Shown: positions 10,294 through 62,843, numbered from the stretch's first letter. The stretch is 64,000 bases of DNA from Verrucomicrobiota bacterium (GCA_039796295.1 JBDKJY010000037.1:2199-66198), one strand, 5' to 3'. Notes: generated from the sequence alone by a model not told the origin. Program-made: numbers and translations.

Positions 10294-11814
10294 TCAGGGC
10301 TGGTTCACCCGTTGGGCCACGAAGGATTGGCCGAGCTGGCCGTAGCGGCTCACGGCGGTGACGGCGATGACTTCGGGCAACGGCCCCGCCGCGCTGCGGA
10401 AGCTGCGGTTCAGCTGGCTGCTGGGGAGGAGTTCGGTCTGCCATGCGTTGGTCCCGCGCATCTGCACGAGCCACCAGCCGGGCGCGCTGCCATCGGGCAT
10501 CACCCACTGGAAGACGGAGACGCTCTTCGCCGCGTCCTGGCCGAAGGCAACTTGGGGGCGCGTGGGAATGGCTTTGTCCAGCCACGGGGAGGCGGGGATG
10601 AGCGCGGGGGTAAGGTTGATTTGGCGGAGGAGTTTGTTGGCGAGGTCGTCGCGGTTTTGGTGCAGGGCCTTGATGCTCCATTGCAGGCTGCCGCTCGCGC
10701 CGGGTTGCGCGCGGGTGAGCTGGAGTTGTTTGATGATTTCGTCCGCACTGCGACCGGGGCCGATGTTGGCGGAGGCGAGGCCGGGCCAGAGGTGGCGCGC
10801 AGCGGAGTTTTGCTCGGCCCACCATTTCAGGAGCACGGGGAAACTCTGCTCCGGCGCGTCAATCGCCCAGTAGAGCTGCGGCGCGAGGTAGTCCATCCAG
10901 CCGGCGCGGAACCACTTGAGGGCGTCGGCGTAAAGCTCCTGCGTGGCGTCCATGCCGCGGATGCCGGGGGGCGTGCCGGGCTTCCAGATGCCGAAGGGGC
11001 TGAGGCCGACTTTCACCCACGGCTTCTCGGCCTTCACGGTGGTGTAGAGGCGCTGGACGAAGCGGTTCACGTTGTCGCGCCGCCAGTCGTCGCGCGCGAG
11101 CGGGCCGCCGGCCTGCTGGTATTTCTTCCAACTGGCGGTGTCCGGGAAATCCATCGGCTTCTTCGCCGCGTCCTTCTCGCGGTAGGGATAGAAGTAGTCG
11201 TCGAGGTGGACGCCATCCACGTCGTAGCGGCGCACGACATCGAGGATGACCCGGAGCGAATGCTCGTGGACGAGCGGCTCGCCGGGGTCGAGCCAGAGCA
11301 GCTTGCCGTAAGCGCGGACCAGCTCGGGCCGGGTCTTGCTGATGTGATTGTGGGCGACGGGGCCCTTCGCCGAGTTGTGCCGGGCGCGGAAGGGATTGAA
11401 CCACGCGTGCAGCTCCAGCCCGCGCCGGTGTGCCTCGGCGACGGCGAAGGCCAGTGGGTCGTAATACGGCTCGGGCGCGCGGCCCATGCTGCCGGTGAGG
11501 TATTCACTCCACGGTTCGAGCTTCGAGGCGTAGAGGGCGTCGCAGCCGGGGCGGACTTGGAGGACGACGGCGTTGAGGTGGAGGGCGCGGGCCTTGTCGA
11601 GCAAGGCGAGGAGCTCGGTCTGCTGCTGCTGCGTGGTCAGGCCGGCCTTCGAGGGCCAGTCGATGTTCCCGACGGAGGCGATCCACGCGCCGCGAAACTC
11701 GCGCGGCAGTGCCGGGGGTGTGAGCGCCGAGGGGATGTAGCTCACGCCCGCGCCGCGAGCGGGGACCGCCACGGTGGCGGCAGCCAAGGCGAGCAAGGTC
11801 TGGCGGCGGTTCAC
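10294..11814 (-). CDS. glycoside hydrolase-like family 10 (GHL10/YngK-like) protein
   Basis: ORF 10294..11910 (TTG). The likely start is GTG 11814, giving a VNRRQTLLALAAA Tat-like signal. FRGAWIASVGNIDWPS and HAWFNPF motifs are typical of PF02638-type proteins. Confidence 0.75.
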   Translation of the reverse strand: MNRRQTLLALAAATVAVPARGAGVSYIPSALTPPALPREFRGAWIASVGNIDWPSKAGLTTQQQQTELLALLDKARALHLNAVVLQVRPGCDALYASKLEPWSEYLTGSMGRAPEPYYDPLAFAVAEAHRRGLELHAWFNPFRARHNSAKGPVAHNHISKTRPELVRAYGKLLWLDPGEPLVHEHSLRVILDVVRRYDVDGVHLDDYFYPYREKDAAKKPMDFPDTASWKKYQQAGGPLARDDWRRDNVNRFVQRLYTTVKAEKPWVKVGLSPFGIWKPGTPPGIRGMDATQELYADALKWFRAGWMDYLAPQLYWAIDAPEQSFPVLLKWWAEQNSAARHLWPGLASANIGPGRSADEIIKQLQLTRAQPGASGSLQWSIKALHQNRDDLANKLLRQINLTPALIPASPWLDKAIPTRPQVAFGQDAAKSVSVFQWVMPDGSAPGWWLVQMRGTNAWQTELLPSSQLNRSFRSAAGPLPEVIAVTAVSRYGQLGQSFVAQRVNQP

Positions 11815-12173
11815 AGCGCGGAGGCTAGCGGGCGGAGCGGAGGGAACCAAGCTGTAACGTGGCGCGCGGGTGTGTCGCCGACCAGCCGCAGCCTTCCCGC
11901 CCTCCCGCAATCATCGCTCAACGCAGACTAGCCAGAGGTGAGCACCTGCTGCGACTGGTGCCGCGCGCACAGTCGGCCTCGGTTCCGTTTGCTGTTCGGG
12001 GGCAAGGCTGGCGCTGCGGCCACGGAACCGTGCGTGGCAGGAAACGCTTTGCTTCGGCCACCTCGTTATACAGAATCCGCCACCCGATGAACGACGCCTC
12101 TCCCACCCTCGCTGCCACGCTAGGCGGGGGGGGCTGAACCGCAGCGGCTTCCTCTTTGCCCACCGCCCCACCC

Positions 12174-13214
12174 ATGAGCCACGTCAGCGACTACTTCCAA
12201 ACCCTCGGCCAGACAATGGCCAGCCAGCTCGGCGACCACCCCGAGCCGGACAGTGTCTTCGCGGCCATCGCCACCGATGTGTTAAGCGCGGTGCCTGCGC
12301 CCCCGATTGACGTTCTGGCGATGGCGGACTGGGCCGGGCAACAAGATCCGCTCCCCAAGCAGGTCAACTTCAAGTCTGGCTTCGGTCAGCCGCCGCTGGT
12401 GGTCTTCGTGGCCCCCGGCTTCTACATCGAGGTGCTCTTCTGGTTCCCCAGCCGCACCGGCATCCACGGGCACGGGTTCACGGGCGCGTTCCGGGTGCTG
12501 AACGGTTGCTCGGTCCAGGTCGAATACCGGTTCCTCGAGGAGTCCGCCCCGGAGGAGGGACTGCGGCTCGGTAAGCTGGTCGCGCAGGGGATCGAGATGG
12601 TCGCGCCGGGCAAGGTGTGTTCCATCCTGGGCCGGGATGACTTCATCCACTGCGTCGCGCATCTGGGCAACCCCTCCCTCACGCTGGTGGCCCGCACCTA
12701 CGGCAGCAAGGACCTGCGGCAATTCTCCTTCCATCGGTGCGGCTTTGCCCTCCGGGCGAAATACCAGCAGCAGACCATGGAACGGCAGGCGGCGGTGCTG
12801 GCGGCGGTGTTCAAGGCCCGCCCGGCGGCCTTCAGAGAACGGCTCCTGGCCTATCTCGCCGCCACCGACTGCGCCGCCTGCTATGCCGTCCTGAGTGAAC
12901 TCAAGTCCCTCCTCGCCTTTCCCGTGTTCACCAAGCAGGTGCTGCCCGCCGTCCGGGAGCGCTTCGGGGCCACCCACGCGCCCGCACTGGCGGCCCTCGA
13001 CGAGGACGTTCGCTCCAACGGCATCTGGGGCCTGATCGGTAAGCTCAACGATCCCCGGCAGCAGCTCCAGCACGCCCTCACCGAGCTATTCCCCGACGAG
13101 CGGGAACGCGATGCCCTCATCTGCCAATCCCTCGGCGTGGCGGATGCCCAGCCGGTGTTAGCGGAATGGTTGCGGATCGCCGAACAGTCCTCTGCTCCGC
13201 CGGCCACTGGTTGA
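12174..13214 (+). CDS. hypothetical protein, cupin-like N-terminal half
   Basis: ORF 12156..13214 (TTG); ATG at 12174. GIHGHGFTGAFRVLNGCSVQVEY resembles a metal-binding double-stranded beta-helix motif. The C-terminal half is helical. Convergent with the cyclase gene. Confidence 0.6.
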   Translation: MSHVSDYFQTLGQTMASQLGDHPEPDSVFAAIATDVLSAVPAPPIDVLAMADWAGQQDPLPKQVNFKSGFGQPPLVVFVAPGFYIEVLFWFPSRTGIHGHGFTGAFRVLNGCSVQVEYRFLEESAPEEGLRLGKLVAQGIEMVAPGKVCSILGRDDFIHCVAHLGNPSLTLVARTYGSKDLRQFSFHRCGFALRAKYQQQTMERQAAVLAAVFKARPAAFRERLLAYLAATDCAACYAVLSELKSLLAFPVFTKQVLPAVRERFGATHAPALAALDEDVRSNGIWGLIGKLNDPRQQLQHALTELFPDERERDALICQSLGVADAQPVLAEWLRIAEQSSAPPATG

Positions 13215-13243
13215 GACTCGCCGGGCCGGGGTGCCCCAGCGCG

Positions 13244-15181
13244 CTAGCCTTCCACAGCCTGCTTCCCCGCGCGCCCCTGCTCCTGCTGCCAGAGCGTCAA
13301 CGCGGCCAGTGCGTGGCGCACGGTGAGGGTGGGCGGGTGCTTCAGGGCTTCGCGCAGACGGACCGTGTCCACCCACGGGTTGGGCTGGCACAGGCGCTCA
13401 TGCACCGCCGCCAAGGGCTTCGCCTCCTGCCGCTCCTTCTGCCGCTCCGCCAGCGCCGGGTCCTGCTTCACCGAATCCCACGGGACGGCTGGGGGGAAGA
13501 GCTTGCTCGTCGCATGCCGATACAGCACCCGACCCTGACCCGGCTGGTAATGCAGCTCCGGCGGCACGCCATACACGAACTCCAGCACCCGCCGGTCGGT
13601 CAGCGGGTAGGCATACGTCAGCCCGTGTTCCGCTCCGAAGGCCGCCCACGACTCCATCCGCGCCGTGACATGGCCGTGGTAATAGAGCGCCGCCTGGCAT
13701 CTCCGGCTCCCCGGCACCTCCCGCACGTGCGGCACGTCCGTGCGCAGGTGCGGGCGGATGCGCTCGGCGAACTCCACTCGGATAAACGGCTCGCCCCGCT
13801 TACTGCGCGCCTGCCGATACGCCAGCCGCTCCCACAGCGCGGCCGGCAACGTGGGCAGCACCGCACTATCCCAGAACGCCCGCAGCGCCACCAACGCCAG
13901 CCCCGGGCGACGCCACGCGCGCCCCAGCCCCAGATACCCCGCCAGCGCCCCCCACTCTCCGCGCACCAGATAATCCGCCGCCAACCCCCGCCCATTGTAG
14001 CTCACCCCTTCATCCCCGCCCCAACCCGACAGCATCAGCCCGACCCCTTGCGCCGCCGCGCGCACTTGCACCGACCGCTCCAGCCCCATCGTCAGCGCCG
14101 GCCGCAGGGAGATGTCCAGCTCCGCCATCCAGCGCTCATCGTCATCGGTGGCCTCCGTGTAGAGCGGCGTCAACCCCTCCTGCTGGCAGATGGCCACAAT
14201 GCGCCGGTGCTCCGTCTCCTCTGGCTTGGACCCCGGCGGTGGGGACCAGGAGAACATCGTGGGCACCGCCGCCCCGCGCTGCCGCTGGAGCCGCGCCGCC
14301 AGCACCGCCACCGACGATGAATCCAGCCCCCCGCTGAGGTGAGCCCCCACCGGCAGCCGCGTCCGCAAGCAATCCCCTACCGCCCGCTCCACCAGCGCGT
14401 AAAGCTGCTCCACATAGTCGGCGTGCCGCGCCAGCCGCACATCCGGCAGCCGCTCGGGGAACCAATACCGCGCCACCCGCAACCCCCGGTCATCCACCGT
14501 CAGCGTGTGGCCGAATGGCAGCTTGCGCACGCCCCGGTAGTAGGTGCGGACATTGTCATGCGCCCCCGGAGACAGGTTCAACAGCAGCCACCCCACCTCC
14601 ACCTCATCCAGCTCCCGCCGCACCCCGGGGATGGCGAGCAAGGCCGGCAAGTCCGTGGCGAAGGCGAACTCCCGCTCCGTGTGCCAGTAGAACAGTGGGC
14701 GTGCTCCGATGTGATCCCGCGCGAGGAACAGCCGCCGCGCCCCCGCATCCCAGACGGCGAAGGCGTAATCCCCCACCAGATGCTCCGTGCAGCCCTCCCC
14801 CCACCGCTCCCACGCCCGCAGCAACAGCGCCTCATCCGACACCATCGCGCGTTCCGCCGACGGCACGTCCAGCGCGGCGCACAGCTCCGGCCGTCCATCC
14901 AGCCGCGCATCCGCCACGACGGTCAAGGGTCCACGGGTGAGGATGGCAGTTTCCGGTAGGGCCGCGCTGTGCGCGGTCTTGTCTTCCTCCGGCCGTCCAC
15001 AGGACGGCCCTACCGCCTCCGGCGTGAAGTGCTGCACCTGGCAGCCGAGGGCGATGGGACCGCTGCTCCACAGGCCACGCGCATCCCGGCCATACTGCTC
15101 CATCAGGGACAGGGCAGGGGAGAGGGCCGCTGGGGAGACCGGCGCACCGTCCAGCCGGAACAGCCCGGCAATGGCACTCAT
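13244..15181 (-). CDS. asparagine synthetase-like lasso peptide cyclase (C protein) candidate
   Basis: 645-aa ORF. ATP-PPase motif HLSGGLDSS is present, but the N-terminus MSAIAG lacks the Cys2 glutaminase nucleophile. Compare the true AsnB at 33962..35878, which starts MCAITG. The start overlaps the PqqD stop (ATGA, 15178-15181). Confidence 0.8.
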   Translation of the reverse strand: MSAIAGLFRLDGAPVSPAALSPALSLMEQYGRDARGLWSSGPIALGCQVQHFTPEAVGPSCGRPEEDKTAHSAALPETAILTRGPLTVVADARLDGRPELCAALDVPSAERAMVSDEALLLRAWERWGEGCTEHLVGDYAFAVWDAGARRLFLARDHIGARPLFYWHTEREFAFATDLPALLAIPGVRRELDEVEVGWLLLNLSPGAHDNVRTYYRGVRKLPFGHTLTVDDRGLRVARYWFPERLPDVRLARHADYVEQLYALVERAVGDCLRTRLPVGAHLSGGLDSSSVAVLAARLQRQRGAAVPTMFSWSPPPGSKPEETEHRRIVAICQQEGLTPLYTEATDDDERWMAELDISLRPALTMGLERSVQVRAAAQGVGLMLSGWGGDEGVSYNGRGLAADYLVRGEWGALAGYLGLGRAWRRPGLALVALRAFWDSAVLPTLPAALWERLAYRQARSKRGEPFIRVEFAERIRPHLRTDVPHVREVPGSRRCQAALYYHGHVTARMESWAAFGAEHGLTYAYPLTDRRVLEFVYGVPPELHYQPGQGRVLYRHATSKLFPPAVPWDSVKQDPALAERQKERQEAKPLAAVHERLCQPNPWVDTVRLREALKHPPTLTVRHALAALTLWQQEQGRAGKQAVEG

Positions 15182-15465
15182 GCCGTCACCGTCTGGATGT
15201 GCAGCAGCTTGTCCGTGTGAAGCTGGGTGAGGAAGGCCAGCACCTCCCGCTCACACACCGCCGGGTCCACCTCGAACTCCGACTGGAGCTGGGTGACCAG
15301 CTCGCTCACCCGACACGGCTGTTCCACCGCCGCCCACACCCGAGTGGCCATGCGGTTCATCTGGTAGTATTCCCCATTCTCGATGCTCAGGAGCACGGCC
15401 TGCTCATCCAGCGTGCCGGAGATCAGCTCAGGGGCACGGACCACGGTGGAGGTAGAGAATATCAT
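15178..15465 (-). CDS. PqqD family RiPP recognition element (lasso B1/E-type chaperone)
   Basis: ORF 15178..15600; start moved to ATG 15465, giving 95 aa. Typical PqqD pattern: GTLDEQAVLLSIENGEYYQMNRMATRVWAAVEQPCRVSELVTQL. Translationally coupled to the cyclase. Confidence 0.85.
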   Translation of the reverse strand: MIFSTSTVVRAPELISGTLDEQAVLLSIENGEYYQMNRMATRVWAAVEQPCRVSELVTQLQSEFEVDPAVCEREVLAFLTQLHTDKLLHIQTVTA

Positions 15466-15553
15466 AGCGGCATGCAAAGTAAGGGGCAGCAGGTGAGGGT
15501 CAAGTCGGAACCCGGCCACACAGGCGACGGAGCGCGGGCGGTGGGTAGGGCTT

Positions 15554-15640
15554 GGAGTCCCGGCTTCAGCCGGTGGAGCCGTCCGGTTCACCTGTGCCAC
15601 GCGTGCGCGCTGCCGGCTAAAGCCGGGACTCCAAACGGGG
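15554..15640. repeat. 87-nt structured element, copy 1 (20-bp inverted arms GGAGTCCCGGCTTCAGCCGG / CCGGCTAAAGCCGGGACTCC)
   Basis: Near-identical copy at 17684..17770. The arms are complementary apart from one mismatch. Lies between the precursor A1 stop and the PqqD start. Confidence 0.8.
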
Positions 15641-15698
15641 GGCGGGCTGCGGACGCGGGGACCGCAGTCCGGGGGGGCGAACGCGGGCTGCGGTAGTG

Positions 15699-15854
15699 CT
15701 AGGAAGGGGGGGCCGCAGTGCTACGAGAGGTCTCCCTAGTAAAGGAATTTTTTTCCGTCCCCTCGGCAAGGTCGAGGGGCAGTAGCAGCGGCGTCTCCCA
15801 AGGGAGCTTGGCGGCGGGGGCTGGCGGGGCGGGGGATGCTGATTCGGTTTGCAT
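15699..15854 (-). CDS. lasso-type precursor peptide paralog A1 (51 aa, below the ORF-track cutoff)
   Basis: Hand translation of the minus strand: MQTESASPAPPAPAAKLPWETPLLLPLDLAEGTEKNSFTRETSRSTAAPPS, stop TAG. The leader is shared with three paralogs. Lies immediately upstream of the PqqD and cyclase genes. Confidence 0.7.
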   Translation of the reverse strand: MQTESASPAPPAPAAKLPWETPLLLPLDLAEGTEKNSFTRETSRSTAAPPS

Positions 15855-15863
15855 GGCGGCGGG

Positions 15864-15894
15864 AGAGTAGTGGGGGGGGGCGGAGGGCTGTCAA
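15864..15894 (-). promoter_or_regulatory. sigma70-like promoter candidate for A1 (TTGACA-19 nt-TACTCT, 9 nt to ATG)
   Basis: Minus strand has TTGACA (15894..15889) and TACTCT (15869..15864). The spacer contains a G9/C9 run. The module is conserved upstream of all four precursor ORFs. Confidence 0.45.
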
Positions 15895-16102
15895 CGGGAG
15901 AGGGTGGCCCAAGCGCACCGGAGCGCGGGTAGGGCGCGGTGTCCTCCCCGCGCCGCCGAATGGGGAGTGGCATCCGGTTGGCCCACGGCAAGGGGAGGCC
16001 ACCCCGCCCTACCTGCTCCCGGCTGCGGCCAGGCGCAGCTCAGTATTTTGCACGGCCAGGTGGGGATGGTGAATTCGTTGCTCACAAAACGTCGCGCGTC
16101 TT

Positions 16103-16245
16103 CACCCTCACCCCGGCCCTCTCCCTCCAAGGGAGAGGGAGAGCGCTTTACGCCGGCTCGTGCTTCCGAGCACGCCCTTTCGCCGCAGCGCGGCCTGCGT
16201 GGCTCCCTCTCCCAGCGGGAGAGGGCTGGGGTGAGGGAGAACGGC
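16103..16245. repeat. inverted pair of 'GEGRGEG-type' elements (CTCACCCCGGCCCTCTCCC..GGGAGAGGG)
   Basis: 16103-16145 and 16204-16245 are reverse complements of each other and flank about 60 bp. The same family occurs at 19261-19390, 28207-28333, 37623-37668, 46321-46362, 49150-49190 and 49296-49338. Confidence 0.8.
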
Positions 16246-16380
16246 TCCGAGTGCAGAACCGGGTTGCAGGAAAGTAATATGCGCCCCTGCGGCCCATCCC
16301 TTCATTAAGGCGTTGACAAACCAACCCCGTTTCGATAGAGAAAAACCGTCCACACAATCTGAACCGAACCAATCCAAGCT

Positions 16381-17073
16381 ATGCCCTTCAAATACATCCA
16401 AGTTCCGAACACCAAAGACCCGAACAAATCCTCCACCCGCGCCGCCCTGGGCGACCCCGTAAGCGAAGCCGAGTTCTTCGCCTACATGGCCATCCTCCTC
16501 AGCAAACCGCCTGCCGATTGCGAAGCGGCCTTCAATGCGTTGCTGGATACCTGTGTCCACTTCGCCCGGGATACCCGCGCCACCAGCTACCTGCATGGCC
16601 GCCTGCGTATGCAACCCTCCAGCGGCGGCAGCTTCGAGACCGGCACCACCCCGCACTCCCCCAAGGACATCGGCGCGCGTATGAACCTCAGCCTCGGACC
16701 TGATACCGTCGCCGCCTTCGAGGACGACCTGAGCATCGAGAAGGTGGGCGAGGAAGGGGTGCGCGCCCCGCAGATTGACCGCGTGATAGACAACCGCACC
16801 GGGGACACCGATAAATACACGGCCTCCGATGTGCTGGAGGTGGACGGGGAGCACTTCGAGATCGACCCGACGGACACCGCGCAAGGGGTCTTCCTCACCC
16901 CGGTGGCGAGCGGTTCGGCTGTGCGCATCACCCGTTACCTGAGCGTCACGCCTACCCGCATCGAAGTGCTGCTGCCGGCCGGCCTCACCGGCCAGCAACG
17001 CCTCATGGTGGTGTGCAAGTATGACACCAGCCCCCTGCGCTCCAGCACTTACACCAGCGCCCTCAGCCCGTAG
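16381..17073 (+). CDS. HU-like DNA-binding N-terminal domain plus DUF4469-like Ig-fold C-terminal domain protein
   Basis: 230-aa ORF. The C-terminal pattern IDRVIDNRTGDTDKYTASDVLEVDGEHFEIDPTDTAQGVFL...RIEVLLPAGLTGQQRLMVV resembles Bacteroidetes HU/DUF4469 proteins. On the opposite strand to the surrounding RiPP genes. Confidence 0.5.
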   Translation: MPFKYIQVPNTKDPNKSSTRAALGDPVSEAEFFAYMAILLSKPPADCEAAFNALLDTCVHFARDTRATSYLHGRLRMQPSSGGSFETGTTPHSPKDIGARMNLSLGPDTVAAFEDDLSIEKVGEEGVRAPQIDRVIDNRTGDTDKYTASDVLEVDGEHFEIDPTDTAQGVFLTPVASGSAVRITRYLSVTPTRIEVLLPAGLTGQQRLMVVCKYDTSPLRSSTYTSALSP

Positions 17074-17259
17074 GGTCACCCTCCGCCGGTCTGACCCCCA
17101 CCCTCCGCACCACCGAGGGTCACCCTCGCGACGCCGTAGGGTCACCCTCCGACGAGCTGAGGGTCACCCTCCATGAGTCTGAGGGTCACCCTCGTTACGA
17201 CTGAGGGTCACCCTCGTGACGGCTGAGGGTCACCCTCCGCGCGGCTGAGGATGACCCTT
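17071..17259. repeat. tandem array: 9 units at an exact 22-bp period of the 13-bp palindrome GAGGGTCACCCTC
   Basis: Units start at 17071, 17093, 17115, 17137, 17159, 17181, 17203, 17225 and 17247. Five are perfect GAGGGTCACCCTC, two are TAGGGTCACCCTC, and two are degenerate. Spacers are variable 7-mers followed by CT. Confidence 0.95.
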
Positions 17260-17423
17260 GGGGCAGCGCAGGGCTACGTTTGGAATGCACGTGGGGTGCG
17301 GGGCCATCGCCGCACCGCCTTGGTCTGGTGGAATTCAAGTGGCAGACGGCGGGGTGAGGACACCCGCGCTACTGGGAGGTCATTAGGCGAAGGGCCTAGC
17401 CGCCGGTAGGGCAGCGCTTGCGT

Positions 17424-17582
17424 CTATGAGGCCGGGCCTGAGCTTCTGGTAAGTTGTTCAACGGCAGTGATTACAGTCTTCTGGGTCTCATCGGCGAGGT
17501 CGAGGGGGAGGAGGAGCGGGGTCTCCCAGGGGAGCTTGGCGGCGGGGGCTTGCGGGGCGGGGGAGGCAGGTGCGGTCTGCAT
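17424..17582 (-). CDS. lasso-type precursor peptide paralog A2 (52 aa)
   Basis: Hand translation: MQTAPASPAPQAPAAKLPWETPLLLPLDLADETQKTVITAVEQLTRSSGPAS, stop TAG. Confidence 0.7.
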   Translation of the reverse strand: MQTAPASPAPQAPAAKLPWETPLLLPLDLADETQKTVITAVEQLTRSSGPAS

Positions 17583-17591
17583 GGCGGCGGG

Positions 17592-17619
17592 AGGGTAGCT
17601 GGGGTTGGCGAGCTGTCAA
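17592..17619 (-). promoter_or_regulatory. sigma70-like promoter candidate for A2 (TTGACA-16 nt-TACCCT, 9 nt to ATG)
   Basis: Minus strand has TTGACA (17619..17614) and TACCCT (17597..17592). Same module as the other three copies, but with no poly-G run in the spacer. Confidence 0.45.
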
Positions 17620-17683
17620 CGGAGGAGGCAGGCCCAAGCGGTGCGGAGCGCAGACGCCTCCATCCGCAGGCGGGTTGTGGCTG

Positions 17684-17770
17684 GGAGTCCCGGCTTCAGC
17701 CGGTGGAGCCGTCCGATTCACCTATGCCACTCGTGCGCGCTACCGGCTAAAGCCGGGACTCCAAACGGGG
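17684..17770. repeat. 87-nt structured element, copy 2
   Basis: More than 90 percent identical by eye to 15554..15640. Lies between the precursor A3 stop and the A2 promoter module. Confidence 0.8.
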
Positions 17771-17938
17771 CGACGGCGGGTTGCGTTCTCCCTCACCGCC
17801 TACCGACTCAGATGCTGGGGGACTGCGTCCCGCAGGGGCTCCGATGGGGGGAGTCGTAACCTAGGCAAGTCCGACCGTTGCTACGGGTCGCAGACCGGCG
17901 CTGCAAGCGCAGCGTTCAGTGCACCGGCGGCGGGCGGC

Positions 17939-18097
17939 CTACGAGACGGGGCCAAAGGCGGTTCCGATTTCGGTGCTTTGAGGGACGGGCCCGGAATTTG
18001 TCCCGGCGGGGACATCCAGGGGTGTGCAGAGCGGGGTCTCCCACGGGAGCTTGGCGGCGGGGGCTGTCGGGGCGGGGGAGGCAGGTGCGGTTTGCAT
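17939..18097 (-). CDS. lasso-type precursor peptide paralog A3 (52 aa)
   Basis: Hand translation: MQTAPASPAPTAPAAKLPWETPLCTPLDVPAGTNSGPVPQSTEIGTAFGPVS, stop TAG. Confidence 0.7.
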   Translation of the reverse strand: MQTAPASPAPTAPAAKLPWETPLCTPLDVPAGTNSGPVPQSTEIGTAFGPVS

Positions 18098-18106
18098 GGC
18101 GGCGGG

Positions 18107-18134
18107 AGAGTAGCTGGGGGGGGCGGGCTGTCAA
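18107..18134 (-). promoter_or_regulatory. sigma70-like promoter candidate for A3 (TTGACA-16 nt-TACTCT, 9 nt to ATG)
   Basis: TTGACA (18134..18129) overlaps the oxygenase stop codon (18131-18133). The spacer holds a G8/C8 run. Confidence 0.45.
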
Positions 18135-18787
18135 TTGATCGGAGCGCGGGCGTGGGGAGGGCGCTGCGGCTTGACCTTGTCCGCCTTGAGGTGGGCATAG
18201 GGGCCGTCCGCCCGGACGTAGTGCAGGAAGGTCTGGATCATCTCGGTGCCGGTGAAGGGCTCACGCCAATGGGGGCGCTCGATGCCCTGGTAGACCAAAC
18301 CATCCCCCGCCGCGAGGTGGGCGGGCACGGCTTCCCCGGTAGGCGTCTCCACATACAAAGGCCAAGGCACCTGCGGATCGGGCTGGAGGGCGAGGGAGAG
18401 GCTGATTTCGCAGGCGGGGCGGTCCGTGTGCCGGGCCAGCACGGCCCCCGGCTCGTAGATGCGCATGAAGGAGTAGGTAGGCAGGAGCCGGTGGCCGGTG
18501 AGCTGCTCAACCTGCGGGAGCAACCGTAGGAGGAGGTCCTCCGTGACGAGGTTCTTGTAGGCGACGGTGGCCGCTGTCACCGCTCCTTCGCCCCGGCGCA
18601 GGAGGTTGTGGGCCTTCATGGTCTTCAAGTCGGCGGCGGCCTTGGCGCAGACGGCGGCGGGCAGCAAGCCACGGGCGATGAGATAGCCGTGGGTGGCGAA
18701 GGCGTGGGCGGTGTCCACCGGAGCGGGAGGGGATGAAGGGGGACTGCTGGTGGGGGTCTGAGGTGCGCGGGGGGGTGGCGGTGGCAT
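18131..18787 (-). CDS. Fe(II)/2-oxoglutarate-dependent oxygenase
   Basis: ORF 18131..19195; start moved to ATG 18787 (MPPPPPRAPQ..), because the upstream part reads through precursor A4 and repeats. The HxD...H triad is visible: ARHTDRP and ERPHWREP. Confidence 0.75.
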   Translation of the reverse strand: MPPPPPRAPQTPTSSPPSSPPAPVDTAHAFATHGYLIARGLLPAAVCAKAAADLKTMKAHNLLRRGEGAVTAATVAYKNLVTEDLLLRLLPQVEQLTGHRLLPTYSFMRIYEPGAVLARHTDRPACEISLSLALQPDPQVPWPLYVETPTGEAVPAHLAAGDGLVYQGIERPHWREPFTGTEMIQTFLHYVRADGPYAHLKADKVKPQRPPHARAPIN

Positions 18788-18891
18788 CGGGCTCACGATG
18801 CAGCGGACTTTCCGCGTGGGAAGGACTAGCGTCAACCGGGAATCCGGACCCCAGACCCGCAGGCTGAAGGGGCGGACACGACCTGCTTGGA

Positions 18892-19047
18892 CTACGAGGC
18901 GGGGCCGGAGCGGGGACCGGATTCCCTGTAGAAGGTAAATGTTTTGTTTGTCTCTTCGGCGGCATCGAGGGTCTGGCAGACGGGCGTCTCCCAAGGGAGC
19001 TTGGCGGCAGGGGCTGGCGGGGCAGGGGAGGCAGGTGCGGTTTGCAT
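18892..19047 (-). CDS. lasso-type precursor peptide paralog A4 (51 aa)
   Basis: Hand translation: MQTAPASPAPPAPAAKLPWETPVCQTLDAAEETNKTFTFYRESGPRSGPAS, stop TAG. Confidence 0.7.
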   Translation of the reverse strand: MQTAPASPAPPAPAAKLPWETPVCQTLDAAEETNKTFTFYRESGPRSGPAS

Positions 19048-19056
19048 GACGGCGGG

Positions 19057-19084
19057 AGAGTAGCTGGGGGGGGCGGGCTGTCAA
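19057..19084 (-). promoter_or_regulatory. sigma70-like promoter candidate for A4 (TTGACA-16 nt-TACTCT, 9 nt to ATG)
   Basis: TTGACA (19084..19079) and TACTCT (19062..19057). G8/C8 run in the spacer. Confidence 0.45.
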
Positions 19085-19151
19085 CGGAGGAGGCAGGCCG
19101 CAAGCCCGGGGATGAGCCTGCGGGCGGCGAGCGGTTCCCCTAGCCATGAAC

Positions 19152-19218
19152 CGGAGCGCCGAGCATTGCTCGGCAGGAGCGGATGAACGCTCCAAAGCCG
19201 AGCGATGCTCGGCGCTCC
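19152..19218. repeat. REP doublet (GGAGCGCCGAGCATTGCTCGGC ... GCCGAGCGATGCTCGGCGCTCC)
   Basis: Same 22-nt REP family, in inverted pairs, as the copies flanking the RAYT gene at 62.6-63.6 kb. Confidence 0.85.
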
Positions 19219-19260
19219 ACCTCGGTTCAGGGGATGAAATCGCGGCAATTGATGGACCGT

Positions 19261-19390
19261 GGATTCTCTCCCAGCGGGAGAGGGACAGGGTGAGGGAGAA
19301 CGGCTAGGAGTCGTAGCGGGGAGGGATGTCTCCAGACCTCGCTGCCATTCTCCCTCACCCCAGCCCTCTCCCGCTGGGAGAGGGAGGCAG
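19261..19390. repeat. MITE-like unit bounded by an inverted pair of GEGRGEG-type elements
   Basis: 19264-19305 and 19346-19385 are reverse complements of each other (about 40-bp terminal inverted repeats). Confidence 0.75.
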
Positions 19391-19442
19391 GCAGGCCGCT
19401 TCAGTGTTAGCGAGGCGCTGGGGACACCTGGCCTTGCGTAGC

Positions 19443-20305
19443 TCAGTGCACCGGTTGGCCGGTGGCATCCAGGTAGCCATACTGGCGCATGACGTCGGCG
19501 TGGTCGGCGATGACGCGGGCGGCTTGCTCGGGGGTGAGGGCGTCGCGCCAGGAGCCGATGCTGCCCCGGCGGAAGAAGGCCTTGGCCTTGGGGAGGCGCT
19601 CCCGGAAGCCGCCGGCTTGCTCCTGCCGCTGGAGTTCCTCAAAGCGGCTGAACTCGATGGCCTTGCGGATGCGCTCGGGGTCGTCGGGCAGGCCGAGGAA
19701 GCGCACGGCGGTGGTGAAGGTGGCTTCGGGGGTGAGCTTCATGTCCTCGTAGCGGATGACTTGCACGCGGAGGCCGGGGGCGGTGGCCCAACTGGTGACG
19801 TGGCGGCTCCAGGAGAGGAGGCGCTGGCGGAGCTGGTTCGGCTCGGTGGCATCGCTGACGGCCACGCAGGCGTCGGGCTTGCCCAGCAGCTTGACGGAGC
19901 GCTCGTAGTCGGTGCTGCCGCCATGAGCGGCGTAGGAGACGGCGACGTCCAGGGGGTTACGGATAAAGTAGAGGGCGGCCTCGGTGGCCTCGGGGGGCAG
20001 GAGGGGGCGGCCGTCGGGCAGGAAGGTGTAGGCGTCGTGGCACTTGCAGTAGAGGGTCTCCTTGGCCTGGCGGGCGAGGTGGAGATAGACCTCGGGGCGG
20101 AGGGCGTCGGCCTCGTCGGGGGTCAGCTCGCCGGAGTCGTAGCCGACGGCGTTGTCGAAGGGGGCGCGGGCGCTGGAGATGGGGCCGCCGTCGAGGGCAT
20201 TGATGTCGGCGGGCTGGGGGCATCCCGGAGGAAGTTGGTGAGGAAGGTGCGGAACCAAGTGTTACCGGACTTGGGGTAGGAGGCGAGCCAGACGATGCGC
20301 TTCAT
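19443..20305 (-). pseudogene. sulfotransferase, split by a 1-nt frameshift (pseudogene or homopolymer sequencing error)
   Basis: The PAPS 5'-PSB motif MKRIVWLASYPKSGNTWFRTF (ATG 20305) is in one frame. The rest, including the 3'-PB-like IRNPLDVAVSY, is ORF 19443..20258 in another frame. Reading the G5 run at 20216-20220 as G6 gives a continuous ..FLRDAPQPADINALDGGPI.. Confidence 0.8.
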
Positions 20306-20318
20306 GGCGGGCGATGGC

Positions 20319-21256
20319 TCAGGGGCGGAAGTCGGCTTCGAGGCGGTCCACCAGCTCGGTGAGGCGGAAGGCGCCCTCGGGCCGGGTGACGCGGGTGACG
20401 GTGGCCTGCTGGGCGAGGGCCAGGGCGGCGCGGAAGTGGGCGGGCTTGGCGGCGAGGCCATCCACGAAGTGGAAGCGGTAGGTCTGCTGCTTGAGGGCGT
20501 TGAGGCGCTGGGGGCCTTCGACGGAGGTGAGCTGGAGGTCGGGGTCGTTAGTGGCGCGGAGGAGGTAGAGCTTGCGCACCGGGAGGGGGACGGTGGCGAA
20601 GGCGGTGCCCAGGGGGACGGCGCGCTTCTCCAGCGCGGGCCGGATGCGCTGGAGGCCATCGGGTGCGAGGTCGAATTGCTTGAGGGAGTCCAGCCAGAGC
20701 TTGGCATGGGGGAGGCCGGGGTGGAGGACGAGGCGGCCGGTGGCATCCGGGCGGATGGCACAGACGTCGTCGGTGAGGACGGGGTAGCCGCGGCGCTGGC
20801 AGGCGATGGCGGTGGTGGACTTGCCGACACCGGAGATGCCGAGGAAGGCAACGCAGGTATCACCCGTGGCGATGGCGCTGCCGTGGAGGACGAGGTCACC
20901 GCGTTGGTGGAGGAGGGCGGCGAAGGCGGAGCCGTAGAGGAAGAGGCGGACGTCCTCGGGGTCCGCACCGGGCGGGGACTCGATGACGATGCGCCGGCCG
21001 TCCGCGATGAGGAAGCGGGCGATGCCGTCCACGATGAGGAGGAGCTGGCCGGGGGCGGCTTGATAGCGGACGCCACGGTCGGTGGCTCCGGGGAGTTCGG
21101 TGGGGACAGGGCCGGTGAGGATCTCGACGTCGGCGGGGCCATCGGTGGAGGCGGGGGAAGCTCGGGGAGGGGCAGGGTGGAGTGGATGCGCAGGCCGTAG
21201 GCTTGGTGCTGGGGCGGTGGGGGCGGTGGGTTGTCTGTAGTTTCTGGGTCGGCCAT
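20319..21256 (-). pseudogene. HPr kinase-like (HprK-related) peptide kinase, split by a 1-nt frameshift (pseudogene or sequencing error)
   Basis: The N-terminus MADPETTDN..QAYGLRIHSTLPLPELP (ATG 21256) is in one frame. The body, with the P-loop FLGISGVGKSTTA, is in the frame of ORF 20319..21365. Reading the G5 run at 21153-21157 as G6 gives ..LPELPPASTDGPADVEILTG.. Confidence 0.65.
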
Positions 21257-21359
21257 GCGGAGCTACCGTTAGCATGAGGCGGAGGGTGATGTCGAGGGAG
21301 GGGGAGGGCGGGTGAGGATTGGCTGGCCTTGGCGAGGGTGGATTCCCCATGCTGAGGGG

Positions 21360-22487
21360 ATGCAATGGCTTGTGCCGGAACCGGAGTGGCTGGGGGCGTT
21401 ACCCACGGATGTGGCGGCGCATGTGCGGCAACTGGCGGCGTTACCGGGCTTCCCCCGGCACTTGGCCCGGTATAGCGCCGTGCTCAAGAAGCTGAACGAG
21501 AAGCACACTGGCTCGGCCAAGGTGCTGGCCGAGCAGGCGTGGCGGCTGGGGGGCCAGGACCCGGTGGTCCGCCAACACGCGCACTGGGCGATCAGCAAGC
21601 GGGTGCCGGGCTGGCACTTCGGGATCATCAACGACGACGCGCGGAATGCCATCTACCAGGCGGCGCTGAACCGGCATGTGCGTCCGGGGATGATCGTCTT
21701 CGAGGTGGGGACGGGGACGGGCATTCTCGCCATGCTGGCGGCGCGCGCCGGCGCGGCGCATGTCTATACGTGCGAGATGGAGCCGTTGCTGGTGGAGGTG
21801 GCGCGGGAGAACATCGCGCGGAACGGGCTGACGGAGCGGGTGACGGTGATTCCCAAGCGGTCGGACAAGGTGGAGTTGGGCGTGGACCTGCCGGAGCGGG
21901 CGGACCTCTTCGTGGCGGAGATCGTGGATAATGGCCTGCTGGGCGAGGAGGCGCTGGGCATCACGGCGGACGTGCAGGCGCGGCTGCTCAAGCCTGGGGC
22001 GGTGTTGGTGCCCGATCAGATCGAACTGCGCGGGACGCTGGTGGGCGGGCCGTTGGCGAGCCGGGCGTTCCGGGCGCGGCCGGCGTGTGGGCTGGATGTC
22101 TCGGCGCTGGACCGGCTGGGGTCGGGGGTGGTGCAAAGTCCGGCGGGGCTGGAGACGGACCTGGCGGAGGACGTGGTGGCGCTGCACTTCGATCTTGCGC
22201 AGGCGGGAAGTTACCGGACGGCGCAGACGAGCGTGGCGGTGCAGGGGCTAAGGGACGGTGAGGCGGAGGGTTTCCTGAGCTGGATCTGGCTGCGCTTCGG
22301 CGAGGGGCTGGAATACACGAACCGTCCGCCGACGGTCAGTTGCTGGGGTCCGCGCATTCACGTGTTCCCCACGCCCATGCCAGTGACGGCCGGCCACCTG
22401 GTGACGATGCAAGTGCAGCACGACTGCAAGCGGGTGAACATCTGGTCGGAGGCCGGTGGGGCCGGGGTAGGGGAACCGGCAGCGTAA
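21360..22487 (+). CDS. class I SAM-dependent methyltransferase, protein arginine N-methyltransferase (PRMT)-like
   Basis: ORF 21312..22487; ATG 21360. HFGIINDDARNAIYQAALNRHVRPGMIVFEVGTGTGILAMLAARAGAAHVYTCE matches the PRMT pre-motif I and motif I layout. ADLFVAEIVDNGLLGEEAL resembles the PRMT double-E loop region. Confidence 0.65.
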   Translation: MQWLVPEPEWLGALPTDVAAHVRQLAALPGFPRHLARYSAVLKKLNEKHTGSAKVLAEQAWRLGGQDPVVRQHAHWAISKRVPGWHFGIINDDARNAIYQAALNRHVRPGMIVFEVGTGTGILAMLAARAGAAHVYTCEMEPLLVEVARENIARNGLTERVTVIPKRSDKVELGVDLPERADLFVAEIVDNGLLGEEALGITADVQARLLKPGAVLVPDQIELRGTLVGGPLASRAFRARPACGLDVSALDRLGSGVVQSPAGLETDLAEDVVALHFDLAQAGSYRTAQTSVAVQGLRDGEAEGFLSWIWLRFGEGLEYTNRPPTVSCWGPRIHVFPTPMPVTAGHLVTMQVQHDCKRVNIWSEAGGAGVGEPAA

Positions 22488-22512: not shown

Positions 22513-23619
22513 TCACCGCACGCGGACGAAGACCTTGCCGGGCAGTTGCCGCACCATCCGCTTCATCTCCAGACTCAGCAGCCCCACCGAGACGGCGGAC
22601 GCTGGCAGGCCGCTGGCGCGGATGACTTCGTCCATGTGCGCCTCCTCGTGCGTCACGACGGCGAGGATTTTGGTTTCGTTCTCCGAGAGGGACAGCCCCG
22701 GCAGCACGCCGGTCTCGCCGGGGGAGGGCGGCTTGTTCGAGGCGGGGAACAGATACTCGAACTCGCTCAAGATGTCCTCCGCGCCCTCGCAGAGCTTCGC
22801 ACCTTTCTTGATCAGGTCGTGGCAGCCCTTGCTGCGCGGCGAGTCAATCCGCCCGGGCACGGCGAAGACCTGGCGGCCGTAGTCCGTGGCGAAGTTCGCC
22901 GTGATGAGCGCGCCGCTGCTGAGGTTCGCCTCGACGACGACGGTGCCCAGCGTCATGCCCGCGACGATGCGGTTGCGGATGGGGAAGGACTGCTTGTCCG
23001 CCGGGCGGTTGAACGGGAACTGCGAGACAACCGCGCCACTCGCCGCGATGCGTTGGAACAGCTCTGCGTTCTCGGGCGGGAAGACCAAGTTAATGCCCGT
23101 GCCCAAGACCGCGACCGTGCGGCCCTTCGCCGCCAGCGCGCCCTGGTGCGCCGCCGTGTCAATCCCACGCGCCCCGCCGCTCACCACCGTGACGCCGATG
23201 TAGGCGAGTTGGTAGCCGAGCTTGCGCGCCGTCTCGACGCCGTAACTGGTGGTCTGACGCGAACCGACGAGCGCGACGGAGTGCTTGTCCTGTGCGGTGA
23301 GCGTGCCCTTCACGTAGAGCACGATGGGCGGGTCGTAGATTTGCCGGAGCGACTCGGGATACTCCGGGTCCTCCTGCGTGAGCACGTGGCAGCCGTAGTC
23401 CGCGATACGCTTCAGCTCGCCGCTCAGGTCAACGCCACTCTCCCAGTCGGCAATCGCGTCCGCCGTCTCCGCGCCGATGCCGCGCACCTGCTGGAGCTGC
23501 TGCTGGTTCGCGCGCAAGATGGTCGGCGCGTCGCCGAAGTGGTCGAGCAGTTGCCGGACGCGCACCGGGCCGACGTGCTCAATCAAGTTGAGGGCGATGA
23601 ACGCTTCCTTGGAGGTCAT
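22513..23619 (-). CDS. dprA: DNA-processing protein DprA/Smf
   Basis: ORF 22513..23928; start moved to ATG 23619. VALVGSRQTTSYG, SGGARGIDTAAHQGAL and FPIRNRIVAG motifs are typical of DprA. Confidence 0.9.
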   Translation of the reverse strand: MTSKEAFIALNLIEHVGPVRVRQLLDHFGDAPTILRANQQQLQQVRGIGAETADAIADWESGVDLSGELKRIADYGCHVLTQEDPEYPESLRQIYDPPIVLYVKGTLTAQDKHSVALVGSRQTTSYGVETARKLGYQLAYIGVTVVSGGARGIDTAAHQGALAAKGRTVAVLGTGINLVFPPENAELFQRIAASGAVVSQFPFNRPADKQSFPIRNRIVAGMTLGTVVVEANLSSGALITANFATDYGRQVFAVPGRIDSPRSKGCHDLIKKGAKLCEGAEDILSEFEYLFPASNKPPSPGETGVLPGLSLSENETKILAVVTHEEAHMDEVIRASGLPASAVSVGLLSLEMKRMVRQLPGKVFVRVR

Positions 23620-23775
23620 GGCTTTCGGATAGCGAAAGCGGCGCGGCGCGGCAAGCCACGAGTAGGGGAAAGTTTGCTCCGCATGGTGAGCGCGCCGGGT
23701 GGCCGGGAATGAGTGGCCTTGGCTAATCCCATTTTCTAGTGGAGCCGGGCGCGGGGCTTGCGCCAAGCTGCCGCT

Positions 23776-24576
23776 GTGGAAGTCATCATTCAACCCACAC
23801 CGGAAGCCGCTGCTGAGTTGTTGGCGCGGCTGGTCGCCCATGAACTGCACGCGCGGCCCAGCCTGGTCCTCGGATTGGCCACGGGCCGCACGATGGAGAG
23901 CGTCTATGACCGCCTCGCGCGGATTCACCGTGAGTCGGGGTTAAGCTTCGCCGGGACGCGCACCTTCAACCTCGACGAATACGTCGGCCTGCCCGCGAGT
24001 GACCCGCACTCGTATCGCCACTACATGCAGGAGCACCTGTTCCGGCACGTGAACGTGGACTTGCTCAACACGCATCTGCCGCACGGAGACGCCGCCGACC
24101 TGGCAGCGGAGTGTGAGCGCTACGAGCAGTTGATTGCGCAGTGCGGCGGGATTGATGTGCAACTACTGGGCATCGGGCAGACCGGCCACATCGGCTTCAA
24201 CGAACCGCTTTCGGCCTTGCGCTCCCGCACGCGGGTGAAGGCGCTTTCGCCCGTCACCGTGGCGCAGAACGCCTCGCTGTTCGCTGATCCGAGCAAGATG
24301 CCGCGGCGCGCGATCACCATGGGCGTGGGCACCATTCTCGAAGCCCGCCGGGTCCTGCTCCTGGCCACCGGCGCGGGTAAGGCGGAGATCATCGCCAAGG
24401 CGGTCGAAGGCCCCATCACCTCGATGATTTCCGCGACCGCACTCCAGATGCACCCGCGCTGCACCGTCATCGTGGATGAAGCGGCGGCGGCCAAGCTCCA
24501 AGGCGTGGACTACTACCGGTGGATTTTCGAGAACGAGCCGGAGTGGGAGCCGTATCGGACGCCAGCTATCTGCTGA
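23776..24576 (+). CDS. nagB: glucosamine-6-phosphate deaminase
   Basis: ORF 23758..24576 (TTG). The in-frame GTG at 23776 gives VEVIIQ, typical of NagB N-termini. LGLATGRTM, FNLDEYVGL and LLGIGQTGHIGFNEP motifs are present. Start is uncertain by 6 codons. Confidence 0.88.
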   Translation: MEVIIQPTPEAAAELLARLVAHELHARPSLVLGLATGRTMESVYDRLARIHRESGLSFAGTRTFNLDEYVGLPASDPHSYRHYMQEHLFRHVNVDLLNTHLPHGDAADLAAECERYEQLIAQCGGIDVQLLGIGQTGHIGFNEPLSALRSRTRVKALSPVTVAQNASLFADPSKMPRRAITMGVGTILEARRVLLLATGAGKAEIIAKAVEGPITSMISATALQMHPRCTVIVDEAAAAKLQGVDYYRWIFENEPEWEPYRTPAIC

Positions 24577-35878: not shown

Positions 35879-35943
35879 GAGCGCGGGGAGTTAAGCCAAG
35901 TGGGCGGCGGGTTTCAACGCAAACGGCGCTGAGACGCGAGGAA

Positions 35944-36255
35944 TCAGGGGAAACTTTTCCGCCGCCGGGCCAGCTCTGCCTCCGAGTCCCGTGCGCCGTG
36001 AAGCACGCCCAGCACGACGACGGTCGGCCCTTCCACGAAGTAGAACGTGCCGTAGGGAAACCGCCGCAAGTTCAACCGCCGGATGTCAGCGAACCGGACG
36101 CGATAGACCATCGGCTCGTGCGCGAGCCGGCGGAGCACGGTGGCAGATTCCTCCAGCAAGCGGTCCCCGAGTTCCAGGGCCTGCCCCTCATACCAGGCGA
36201 AGGCCTCCAGCAGGTCAGCCCGGACGAGCGGATGAAACGCGAGCGCGAACTTCAC
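35944..36255 (-). CDS. type II toxin, RelE/ParE family
   Basis: 103 aa. The C-terminal pattern FYFVEGPTVVVLGVLHGARD is typical of ParE/RelE plasmid-stabilisation toxins. Immediately downstream of a small antitoxin-like ORF. Confidence 0.75.
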   Translation of the reverse strand: MKFALAFHPLVRADLLEAFAWYEGQALELGDRLLEESATVLRRLAHEPMVYRVRFADIRRLNLRRFPYGTFYFVEGPTVVVLGVLHGARDSEAELARRRKSFP

Positions 36256-36487
36256 GGGCGATGCCTCCCAGATACTCGTTCAACTCCCCGTCCGCCCCGA
36301 CCTTCTCGAAGCGTTCGGGGTGGTCGAAGAATTCCTGCCGCCGACGGAGTAGCTCTTCCTGTTGCGCGGCGGGCGTCTCGTCCGGCGGGAGGAGGTCGTG
36401 GCGATGGTTGTCAAACCACTCGGCAAAGTGCTGCCGTTCCTCGGCGGAGAGGGCCTGAACTTGCTCTTCCAGTTGCTCAACACTCAT
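36215..36487 (-). CDS. antitoxin candidate (addiction-module component-like)
   Basis: 90 aa. N-terminal MSVEQLEEQVQALSAEERQHFAEWF resembles the L..LS..ER..LA motif of addiction-module antitoxins. Overlaps the toxin start by 41 nt. Confidence 0.6.
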   Translation of the reverse strand: MSVEQLEEQVQALSAEERQHFAEWFDNHRHDLLPPDETPAAQQEELLRRRQEFFDHPERFEKVGADGELNEYLGGIAREVRARVSSARPG

Positions 36488-43131: not shown

Positions 43132-43225
43132 GCGGGGAACAAGCGCCGCCTCCCTCCCGGCGAAAGCCTGCACTGCGCCAGCCCGCTGGCGCTTTTCCCG
43201 CGCGTGTTGAACACTCCTCCGCGCC

Positions 43226-45610: not shown

Positions 45611-45619
45611 TCACTCACC

Positions 45620-62842: not shown

Positions 62843-62843
62843 G

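Follow-up and report, generated by a model that had tools for sequence, protein, structure and literature searches.

How does a lasso-peptide cluster remove its leader when it encodes no leader peptidase? This question is raised by a lasso-type locus at 12156-22487 in a stretch of DNA from a Verrucomicrobiota bacterium (GCA_039796295.1, JBDKJY010000037.1:2199-66198), the whole 64,000 nucleotides of which are called the window below. On the minus strand, the locus encodes, in order of transcription, an HprK-like kinase, a sulfotransferase, precursor A4, an oxygenase-like protein, precursors A3, A2 and A1, the PqqD-type recognition element B1, and the cyclase C. A gene for the leader peptidase B2 (PF13471) and a gene for an ATP-binding cassette (ABC) exporter are absent, not only from the locus but across the 64 kb. 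We consider it probable that this is a working paeninodin-like lasso cluster separated from its leader peptidase, and that a B2 encoded elsewhere acts in trans, most likely RL514_1525, a protein from another contig of the same genome submission.

Peptidase and exporter genes across the window

The first-pass annotation had claimed that no leader peptidase and no exporter lie at the locus, and every search that we made agreed. The G+C content of the window is ~66%, and genes were therefore called by codon-position G+C. Pfam searches of the gene-sized called open reading frames (ORFs) across the window gave no match to PF13471 and none to an ABC transporter, and scanning 15500-19500 against Pfam in six frames (E<=10) yielded DUF4469 only. 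NCBIfam recognized the cyclase and B1 among the local ORFs, with no match to a B2 model. When the window was searched by tblastn with the B2 and NTP_transf_5 proteins of relatives (E<=10), the best match had an E of 0.03; the ABC proteins of relatives (E<=1e-4) gave no match. Finally, a custom profile built from 120 related B2 homologues was run with the HMMER filters off against stop-to-stop ORFs of >=30 aa in all six frames, and the best score in the window was 6.1 bits (E=1.1), versus 253-258 bits for positive controls.

A B2-like domain fused to the cyclase or to the cupin-like protein, the possibility that the first-pass annotation had held open against its own claim, was also looked for and did not turn up, and the absence stands. 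The C-terminal extension of the cyclase (~80 aa) is common to relatives possessing B2, the cupin-like protein has a dioxygenase fold, and the profile searches of both were negative. A trio of genes at 52638-56315, whose sizes fit those of B2, NTP_transf_5 and ABC genes, was rejected; it encodes a PPC-domain protein, an Fe-alcohol dehydrogenase and a 181-aa protein without a Pfam match. No signal-peptidase-like protein was found by Pfam among the window proteins.

The features of the locus and its two flanking genes are as follows; the neighbors named in the first-pass annotation, namely a cupin-fold protein, a PrmA/PRMT-like methyltransferase and DprA, are all in place.

10294-11910, minus strand: GHL10 glycosyl-hydrolase-like protein (PF02638, E=3e-68), flanking gene outside the cluster
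12156-13214, plus strand: cupin-fold protein, 352 aa, convergent with the cyclase; cysteine/thiol-dioxygenase-like, with a C-terminal helical domain
13244-15181, minus strand: lasso cyclase C, 645 aa, RL514_3673 / MEN9575818.1 (GATase_7 and Asn_synthase)
15178-15465, minus strand: B1, PqqD-type recognition element (PqqD) for peptides made on the ribosome and modified afterwards (RiPPs), 95 aa from the ATG at 15465
15549-15647: hairpin-forming repeat element between A1 and B1, 99 nt, repeat family D3
15699-15854, minus strand: precursor A1, 51 aa; leader ...AKLPWETPLLLPLDLAEGTE, core KNSFTRETSRSTAAPPS, Glu7
16381-17073, plus strand: DUF4469 protein, 230 aa (PF14734, E=2e-9), within the precursor array on the opposite strand
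17072-17291: tandem array with a 22-bp period, repeat family D2
17424-17582, minus strand: precursor A2, 52 aa; core KTVITAVEQLTRSSGPAS, Glu8
17679-17777: hairpin element of 99 nt, second copy, 92% identical
17939-18097, minus strand: precursor A3, 52 aa; core SGPVPQSTEIGTAFGPVS, Glu9
18131-18787, minus strand: putative oxygenase-like protein, ~217 aa, embedded in the precursor array; coding signal and HTD...H motif
18892-19047, minus strand: precursor A4, 51 aa; core KTFTFYRESGPRSGPAS, Glu8
19443-20258, minus strand: sulfotransferase, 271 aa (Sulfotransfer_1, E=1e-18)
20319-21275, minus strand: HprK-like kinase (Hpr_kinase_C), probably starting at the ATG at 21275 (the ORF as mechanically called extends to 21365)
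21312-22487, plus strand: PrmA/PRMT-like S-adenosylmethionine methyltransferase, 391 aa (PrmA, E=1e-13), divergent from the kinase
22513-23940, minus strand: DprA (DNA_processg_A, E=7e-77), flanking gene outside the cluster

The locus has a cyclase C, a B1/PqqD protein and precursors that carry the leader motif, Thr at -2 and Glu at 7-9; what it lacks is a cluster-encoded B2 and the ABC exporter (D), which is optional within the lasso family. The cyclase matches PF00733 and PF13537 in Pfam and NF033535 in NCBIfam with 318 bits (E=1.6e-94), under the 525-bit cut-off of that model, which points to a divergent member of the lasso cyclases. B1, whose gene overlaps that of C by 4 nt, scores 67 bits against PqqD PF05402 and 76.8 bits against NF033536, slightly under the 80-bit cut-off, and was also called at 95 aa on the independent contig L001. 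The match of the kinase to Hpr_kinase_C (E=2e-4) is under the Pfam cut-off, and the NCBIfam models for HprK-related kinases A and B score far under theirs; its orthologues in three relatives (L004, L056 and L057) match PF27840 ScmC/Hpr_kinase_C (PF07475).

All four precursors start with MQT(A/E)xASPAPxAPAAKLPWETP and have a 34-aa leader with a WxxPx(L/V) motif, in which W lies at -16 and the WETP form is present in 4/4, and with Thr at -2. The cores are variable, 17-18 aa long, with Glu at positions 7, 8, 9 and 8 in A1 to A4, respectively, and a C-terminal Ser in every one. Most leaders of this locus type contain a conserved Cys (PLCQPL), and many of the cores begin with Lys. Discrete lasso RiPP recognition elements (RREs) bind the motif [Y/W]xxPx[L/V/I/F/A], in which a leading W is typical of lasso peptides of the paeninodin-like, kinase-associated kind (PMC13381572); Thr -2 has been described as a critical recognition element (PMC10368454). 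A cut after T(-2)-x(-1) leaves 7-9-residue rings for 4/4 window cores and for 8/8 cores of the related locus L002. The canonical ring size arises only when the cut falls exactly there, the RRE motif is kept, and no gene of the locus is more constrained than B1; maturation therefore calls for a conventional, site-specific leader peptidase. Cyclization through the Lys1 side chain without cleavage was set aside, as several cores have no Lys, yet every core gives a 7-9-residue ring from residue 1.

The first-pass annotation had also reported two frameshifts and suggested that the locus might be decaying. Neither holds. The closest relative with gene context of RL514_3673 is L002 (GCA_964578245.1), and 7/7 conserved genes align to their L002 orthologues as single full-length high-scoring segment pairs, with no stops and no frameshifts. 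The ratio of nonsynonymous to synonymous substitution rates (dN/dS) lies between 0.10 and 0.21 for these seven genes, at a dS of 0.29-0.75. Identity and dN/dS are 88% and 0.10 for B1, the most constrained gene of the locus; 94% and 0.11 for the sulfotransferase; 91% and 0.17 for the oxygenase-like protein; 80% and 0.17 for the cupin-fold protein; 83% and 0.21 for the kinase; 84% and 0.21 for the methyltransferase; and 79% (pairwise alignment; 77% by BLASTP) and 0.21 for C. In this comparison neither B1 nor C shows damage, and purifying selection acts on each. The precursor array, moreover, is present in 7-8 copies in relatives: L002 has eight precursor genes, with the leader shared with the window and different cores, and L059 has at least seven in its array. 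The decayed gene is the other cyclase, the one that adjoins B2 on a separate contig.

A B2 gene on a second contig

With the B2 of L003 as the query, we retrieved RL514_1525 (MEN9573670.1, P0138), a 147-aa PF13471 protein, annotated as hypothetical, on a separate 168,733-bp contig. Its accession and that of the cyclase, MEN9575818.1, differ by 2148, which equals the offset between the locus tags RL514_1525 and RL514_3673; thus, B2 and the cyclase come from one genome submission. The contigs bearing them also both occur in sequencing run SRR35181981. RL514_1525 retains Cys83 and His118, which are invariant, and Asp125, found in the majority of homologues, and shows a dN/dS of 0.11-0.14 versus its orthologues. 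It is the only RL514 protein among the best 120 B2 homologues listed. By these comparisons RL514_1525, 2,148 gene numbers away on another contig, is most likely the protease sought, and the suggestion in the first-pass annotation that the protease is encoded elsewhere gains support.

The next gene after B2, RL514_1526, encodes a type-II cyclase of 384 aa that aligns to residues 1-362 of a 638-aa orthologue. The pair, from the same submission as the window, was located as follows.

L058 3802-4956 and L006 9251-9694, on the 168,733-bp contig: truncated cyclase RL514_1526 and B2, tail to tail

We rebuilt this second locus from two Logan contigs overlapping by 26 nt at their ends, together with locus-tag adjacency. 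The merged locus of ~15 kb reads JmjC-kinase-sulfotransferase-B1-C' (truncated) on one side and, converging on it, B2-B1-kinase on the other, with ~306 bp between the stop codons of B2 and the truncated cyclase; it is composed of two kinase-B1 half-clusters. Neither the remaining piece of the cyclase, in any frame, nor a precursor-like ORF was found in the ~15 kb. The second locus therefore has an intact B2, a broken cyclase and no detectable precursor, and the two loci are complementary: precursors, B1 and C in the window, B2 there. A link between the JmjC protein of the second locus and the cupin-like protein was rejected, as the two are unrelated by sequence. An inverted-repeat element resembling the 99-nt hairpin element of the window lies at the junction of B2 and the truncated cyclase.

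A B2 of the RL514_1525 type lies on a contig separate from the multi-precursor locus in two further assemblies, too. L002 has the layout of the window, with the methyltransferase, then kinase, sulfotransferase, precursors with the oxygenase-like gene, B1 and C, and then the cupin gene, and B2 and ABC genes are absent within 10 kb on either side, so that the syntenic locus in this relative is also without B2. In that sister assembly, GCA_964578245.1, L002 lies on contig 3 (CAZOCL010000003) and a B2 (L010) on contig 2 (CAZOCL010000002). In GCA_009924135.1, the multi-precursor locus L059, in which B1 abuts C, lies on contig 299 (RFSE01000299) and a B2 (L011) on contig 263 (RFSE01000263); RFSE01000299 is 4,950 bp long and ends inside C, and it thus documents the B1-C junction but not an absence of B2 downstream. 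The sister-assembly B2 sits in a paralogous type-II cluster of the order kinase-sulfotransferase-B1-B2-C-precursor-PRMT-like-precursor...NTP_transf_5-MFS. In the type-II leaders (SKQVWTAPTLTTLSLPLGTL, then S...), W(-16) and T(-2) are spaced as in the window leaders. Compared across the two cluster types, B2 shows 64-67% identity, whereas B1 reaches ~38-43%, C 36-42% and the kinase 42-48%; B2 is therefore much better conserved than its partners, which fits B2 as an exchangeable part. The sister B2 (L010 10001-10444) has Asn at the position corresponding to residue 125 of P0138, where 105 of 120 homologues have Asp and eight others Asn; the substitution is probably tolerated.

More distant relatives keep B2 near the cluster. 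Five loci in metagenome-assembled genomes (MAGs) of Opitutaceae (L003, L004, L055, L056 and L057) encode cyclases 45-55% identical to the window C (BLASTP), and in 5/5 a B2 lies 1.4-8 kb downstream of C, grouped with NTP_transf_5 and an ABC exporter and not adjoining B1-C. The module is usually on the other strand, behind unrelated genes. The B2 of L057 was missed by the gene caller and recovered with the custom profile. B2 is uncoupled from B1-C in all five, and in this wider clade it already travels within a B2-nucleotidyltransferase-transporter module of its own. Between the B1-C and B2-NTP_transf_5-ABC blocks of L003, L004, L055 and L057, genes for PF07484 phage-tail-collar proteins, DUF6916, Sulfotransfer_3, an acetyltransferase and sometimes an Asp/Arg hydroxylase recur; they may be members of the pathway.

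Source of the leader peptidase

In the scheme that we favor, the four precursors would be made and B1 would bind the leader, after which a canonical B2 cysteine protease encoded outside the locus would cut the leader exactly after -1. Cyclase C would then link the amine freed at the N terminus to the side chain of Glu. By analogy with paeninodin, the HprK-like kinase would modify the C-terminal Ser. The sulfotransferase, the oxygenase-like protein, the methyltransferase and the cupin protein are candidates for further tailoring. No dedicated transporter in the window accounts for export of the product. Action of B2 in trans is supported by the conserved precursors, the constrained B1 and C, the intact B2 in the same submission and the recurrence of this B2 type on a separate contig in two other assemblies. 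The pairing of RL514_1525 with the window B1 and precursors, like all of the chemistry, is what we infer from these data.

Several points weigh against this assignment. The case for B2 acting in trans is built on genes and sequence comparison. The window B1 is only 42% identical to the B1 adjoining RL514_1525, and RRE-peptidase pairs can discriminate between pathways (PMC13381572). The structure of the 168.7-kb contig is a reconstruction from two Logan contigs with an overlap of only 26 nt and from tag adjacency. The type-II cluster of the sister assembly is apparently complete, so that sharing of its B2 is inferred there and not required. Moreover, the source is a MAG; contigs could have been binned wrongly, and a dedicated B2-NTP_transf_5-ABC module like those of the Opitutaceae relatives could lie in regions of the genome that were not sampled. 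This last point leads to a different answer to which we give a minor but real chance: B2 lies elsewhere but is not RL514_1525, and a dedicated module in an unassembled or unbinned part of the genome supplies both peptidase and exporter. The five relatives with this cyclase type, which carry such a module 1.4-8 kb from C, speak for it, as does the incompleteness of MAGs; a more divergent second B2 could also lie beyond the best 120 homologues listed. Yet those 120 include one RL514 protein only, the only B2 recovered in the three assemblies with the multi-precursor locus type is of the RL514_1525 type, and RL514_1525 has been conserved although its own cyclase is truncated.

That no B2 is involved is improbable in our judgment, whether the leader is removed by a housekeeping protease, by a lineage-specific enzyme of the locus or by a pseudomycoidin-like alternative route. 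Under this explanation, the cupin, oxygenase-like or PRMT-like enzyme, or a housekeeping protease, would have replaced B2, and RL514_1525 would be a leftover of a decaying second cluster; we hold that equally improbable. The cupin, oxygenase-like and PrmA-like genes are indeed present in the window and in L002 and were not found by tblastn in the B2-linked L003 and L004, and pseudomycoidin was made in vivo from the core alone, with the peptidase dispensable (PMC6993621). However, no local protein has a protease fold or motif, the cupin being dioxygenase-like; the canonical signature for B1 and B2 is complete in the leaders, Thr -2 included; B1 is strongly conserved; and B2 is intact in 3/3 assemblies. 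The first-pass suggestion that another enzyme removes the leader thus finds no support in the proteins or the leaders of the locus. It is highly improbable that the locus is a decaying remnant in which lasso peptides are no longer produced: B2 and the exporter are missing from the locus, and the opposite-strand DUF4469 gene and several repeat elements interrupt the precursor array, but the absence of stops and frameshifts, the dN/dS values of all seven genes, the conserved leaders with diversified cores and the 7-8 array copies in relatives argue otherwise. We give almost no credence to an assembly or binning artifact in which a truly adjacent B2 was lost from the contig. The sequence does come from a MAG; nevertheless, the layout without B2 is contiguous over 64 kb and recurs over 22 kb in the independent assembly of L002, and B1 also directly abuts C in the short contigs L001 and L059.

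The most ordinary explanation, a B2 encoded elsewhere, holds, with the twist that the degenerate locus is the other one. The incomplete-looking cluster is the healthy one, and the only recognizable leader peptidase found in the genome lies on another contig, beside a truncated cyclase. Should a single B2 indeed serve a set of B1, cyclase and precursors only ~40% identical to its neighbors, B2 would be a shareable part of the pathway, and the locus would bear on the open question of RRE-peptidase cross-talk (PMC13381572) as a natural test case. The hypervariable cores, four to eight behind one leader, and the uncharacterized tailoring genes for the sulfotransferase, the PRMT-like enzyme and the thiol-dioxygenase-fold protein make reasonable targets for heterologous expression, for which B2 has to be supplied from the other locus.

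Related systems, accessory genes and repeats

Lasso genome-mining rules usually demand B, C and the RRE side by side, and under such rules clusters like the one in the window are missed or labeled 'incomplete'. Mining tools routinely report 'incomplete' clusters, which are often resolved on manual curation (PMC7533575). Phrase searches of the searchable literature found no lasso cluster described as lacking a peptidase or as relying on one encoded at another locus, and our literature search found no lasso-peptide paper for the phylum Verrucomicrobiota.

By gene content and precursor features, the locus resembles paeninodin-like clusters, and phosphorylation is predicted on that analogy. The paeninodin precursor is phosphorylated on its C-terminal Ser by an HprK homologue (Zhu et al. 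2016, summarized in PMC8498205), and the occurrence of sulfotransferase and nucleotidyltransferase genes in paeninodin-like clusters has been noted as well (PMC8498205). Like the paeninodin-like clusters of Firmicutes and Proteobacteria, the locus has a split B1, an Asn-synthetase-like cyclase and an HprK-like kinase with a C-terminal core Ser (PMC8498205, PMC13381572), as well as the WxxP leader motif, Thr -2 and a sulfotransferase gene at the start of the cluster; the NTP_transf_5 nucleotidyltransferase beside B2 and the transporter is shared by the relatives of the window. Unlike them, it has a Verrucomicrobiota host, lacks B2, the nucleotidyltransferase and the ABC exporter, carries four precursors (<=8 in relatives) with hypervariable cores, many of them beginning with Lys, and includes extra oxygenase-like, PRMT-like and cysteine-dioxygenase-fold genes. 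The type-I loci of the Opitutaceae share the orthologous kinase-sulfotransferase-B1-C block and similar precursors (e.g., ...HWETPCLEPLDVVDKTN, then KVSIFPSE...APS), whereas they have a single precursor downstream of C and retain B2, NTP_transf_5 and the ABC exporter; in L003 and L004, tblastn found no cupin, oxygenase-like or PrmA-like gene. Pseudomycoidin, from Bacillus pseudomycoides, is likewise a kinase-associated lasso system in which maturation without a leader peptidase is possible, but its cluster encodes B1 and B2 and the peptidase independence was seen with core-only expression (PMC6993621), whereas the window keeps a long conserved leader. Linear polyphosphorylated peptide (LPP) clusters, too, combine an RRE with an HprK-like kinase, and they coexist with lasso clusters in one genome, hence the question of RRE-peptidase cross-talk; they have no cyclase, a signal-peptidase-I-like enzyme and YxxP leaders (PMC13381572), whereas the window has a cyclase, no such peptidase and WxxP leaders. 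Public MAGs that carry Verrucomicrobiota-type loci (L009, L010 and L014) bear the title 'uncultured Klebsiella sp.' or 'Klebsiella pneumoniae' or, in another case, 'Proteobacteria bacterium', all evidently taxonomic mislabels.

The cupin-fold protein has no sequence match in Pfam, NCBIfam or PDB. It belongs to an unannotated family of 1,526 representatives, in which H104, H106, H165 and H169 are invariant. Its AlphaFold2 model (predicted local distance difference test score, 94.7) has a cysteine-dioxygenase-type cupin and a helical C-terminal domain, with cysteine/thiol dioxygenases as the top Foldseek matches in PDB (E ~8e-8). The conserved leader Cys could be a substrate of this protein. A weak PqqD match in 2 of 57 scanned family members hints at a RiPP-tailoring family. 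The oxygenase-like protein also has no sequence match in Pfam, NCBIfam or PDB, and its putative assignment comes from the HTD...H motif only. The DUF4469 gene is absent from L002, while a 26-aa remnant (92% identical) adjoins the oxygenase-like gene at L059 1234-1311, which marks the insertion as old and as lost in some lineages.

The tandem array at 17072-17291 begins at the DUF4469 stop codon, inside the precursor array, and consists of ~10 copies of a conserved 12-mer, AGGGTCACCCTC, each with 10 variable nt; it could be a protein-binding array or the scar of a mobile element. The two copies of the 99-nt element, one between A1 and B1 and the other between A3 and A2, are 92% identical and fold into a stem of ~24 bp without a U-run, and the 231-nt A1-B1 intergenic region has a folding z-score of -2.5. 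The element may be REP (repetitive extragenic palindromic)-like, or it may act as an RNA-processing or attenuation signal setting the ratio of precursor to enzyme. A 46-nt dispersed repeat at 16207-16252 and 19266-19311 (CTCTCCCAGCGGGAGAGGG...GGTGAGGGAGAACGG) yields spurious ORFs with '...SPLPLGEG...GEGE' and 'LSQRERAGVRENG' motifs.

Elsewhere in the window, a possible second cyclase at 33962-35890 was rejected as a genuine asparagine synthase, AsnB (Asn_synthase, 312 bits; GATase, 154 bits); a ParE-type toxin gene (35944-36279) adjoins asnB. Three large tandem paralogous membrane proteins (799, 889 and 956 aa), in each of which the only match is C-terminal and YfhO-like, are encoded at 43211-51146, and an IS200-like (Y1 transposase) gene lies at 62598-63539, in the lower-G+C end of the window.

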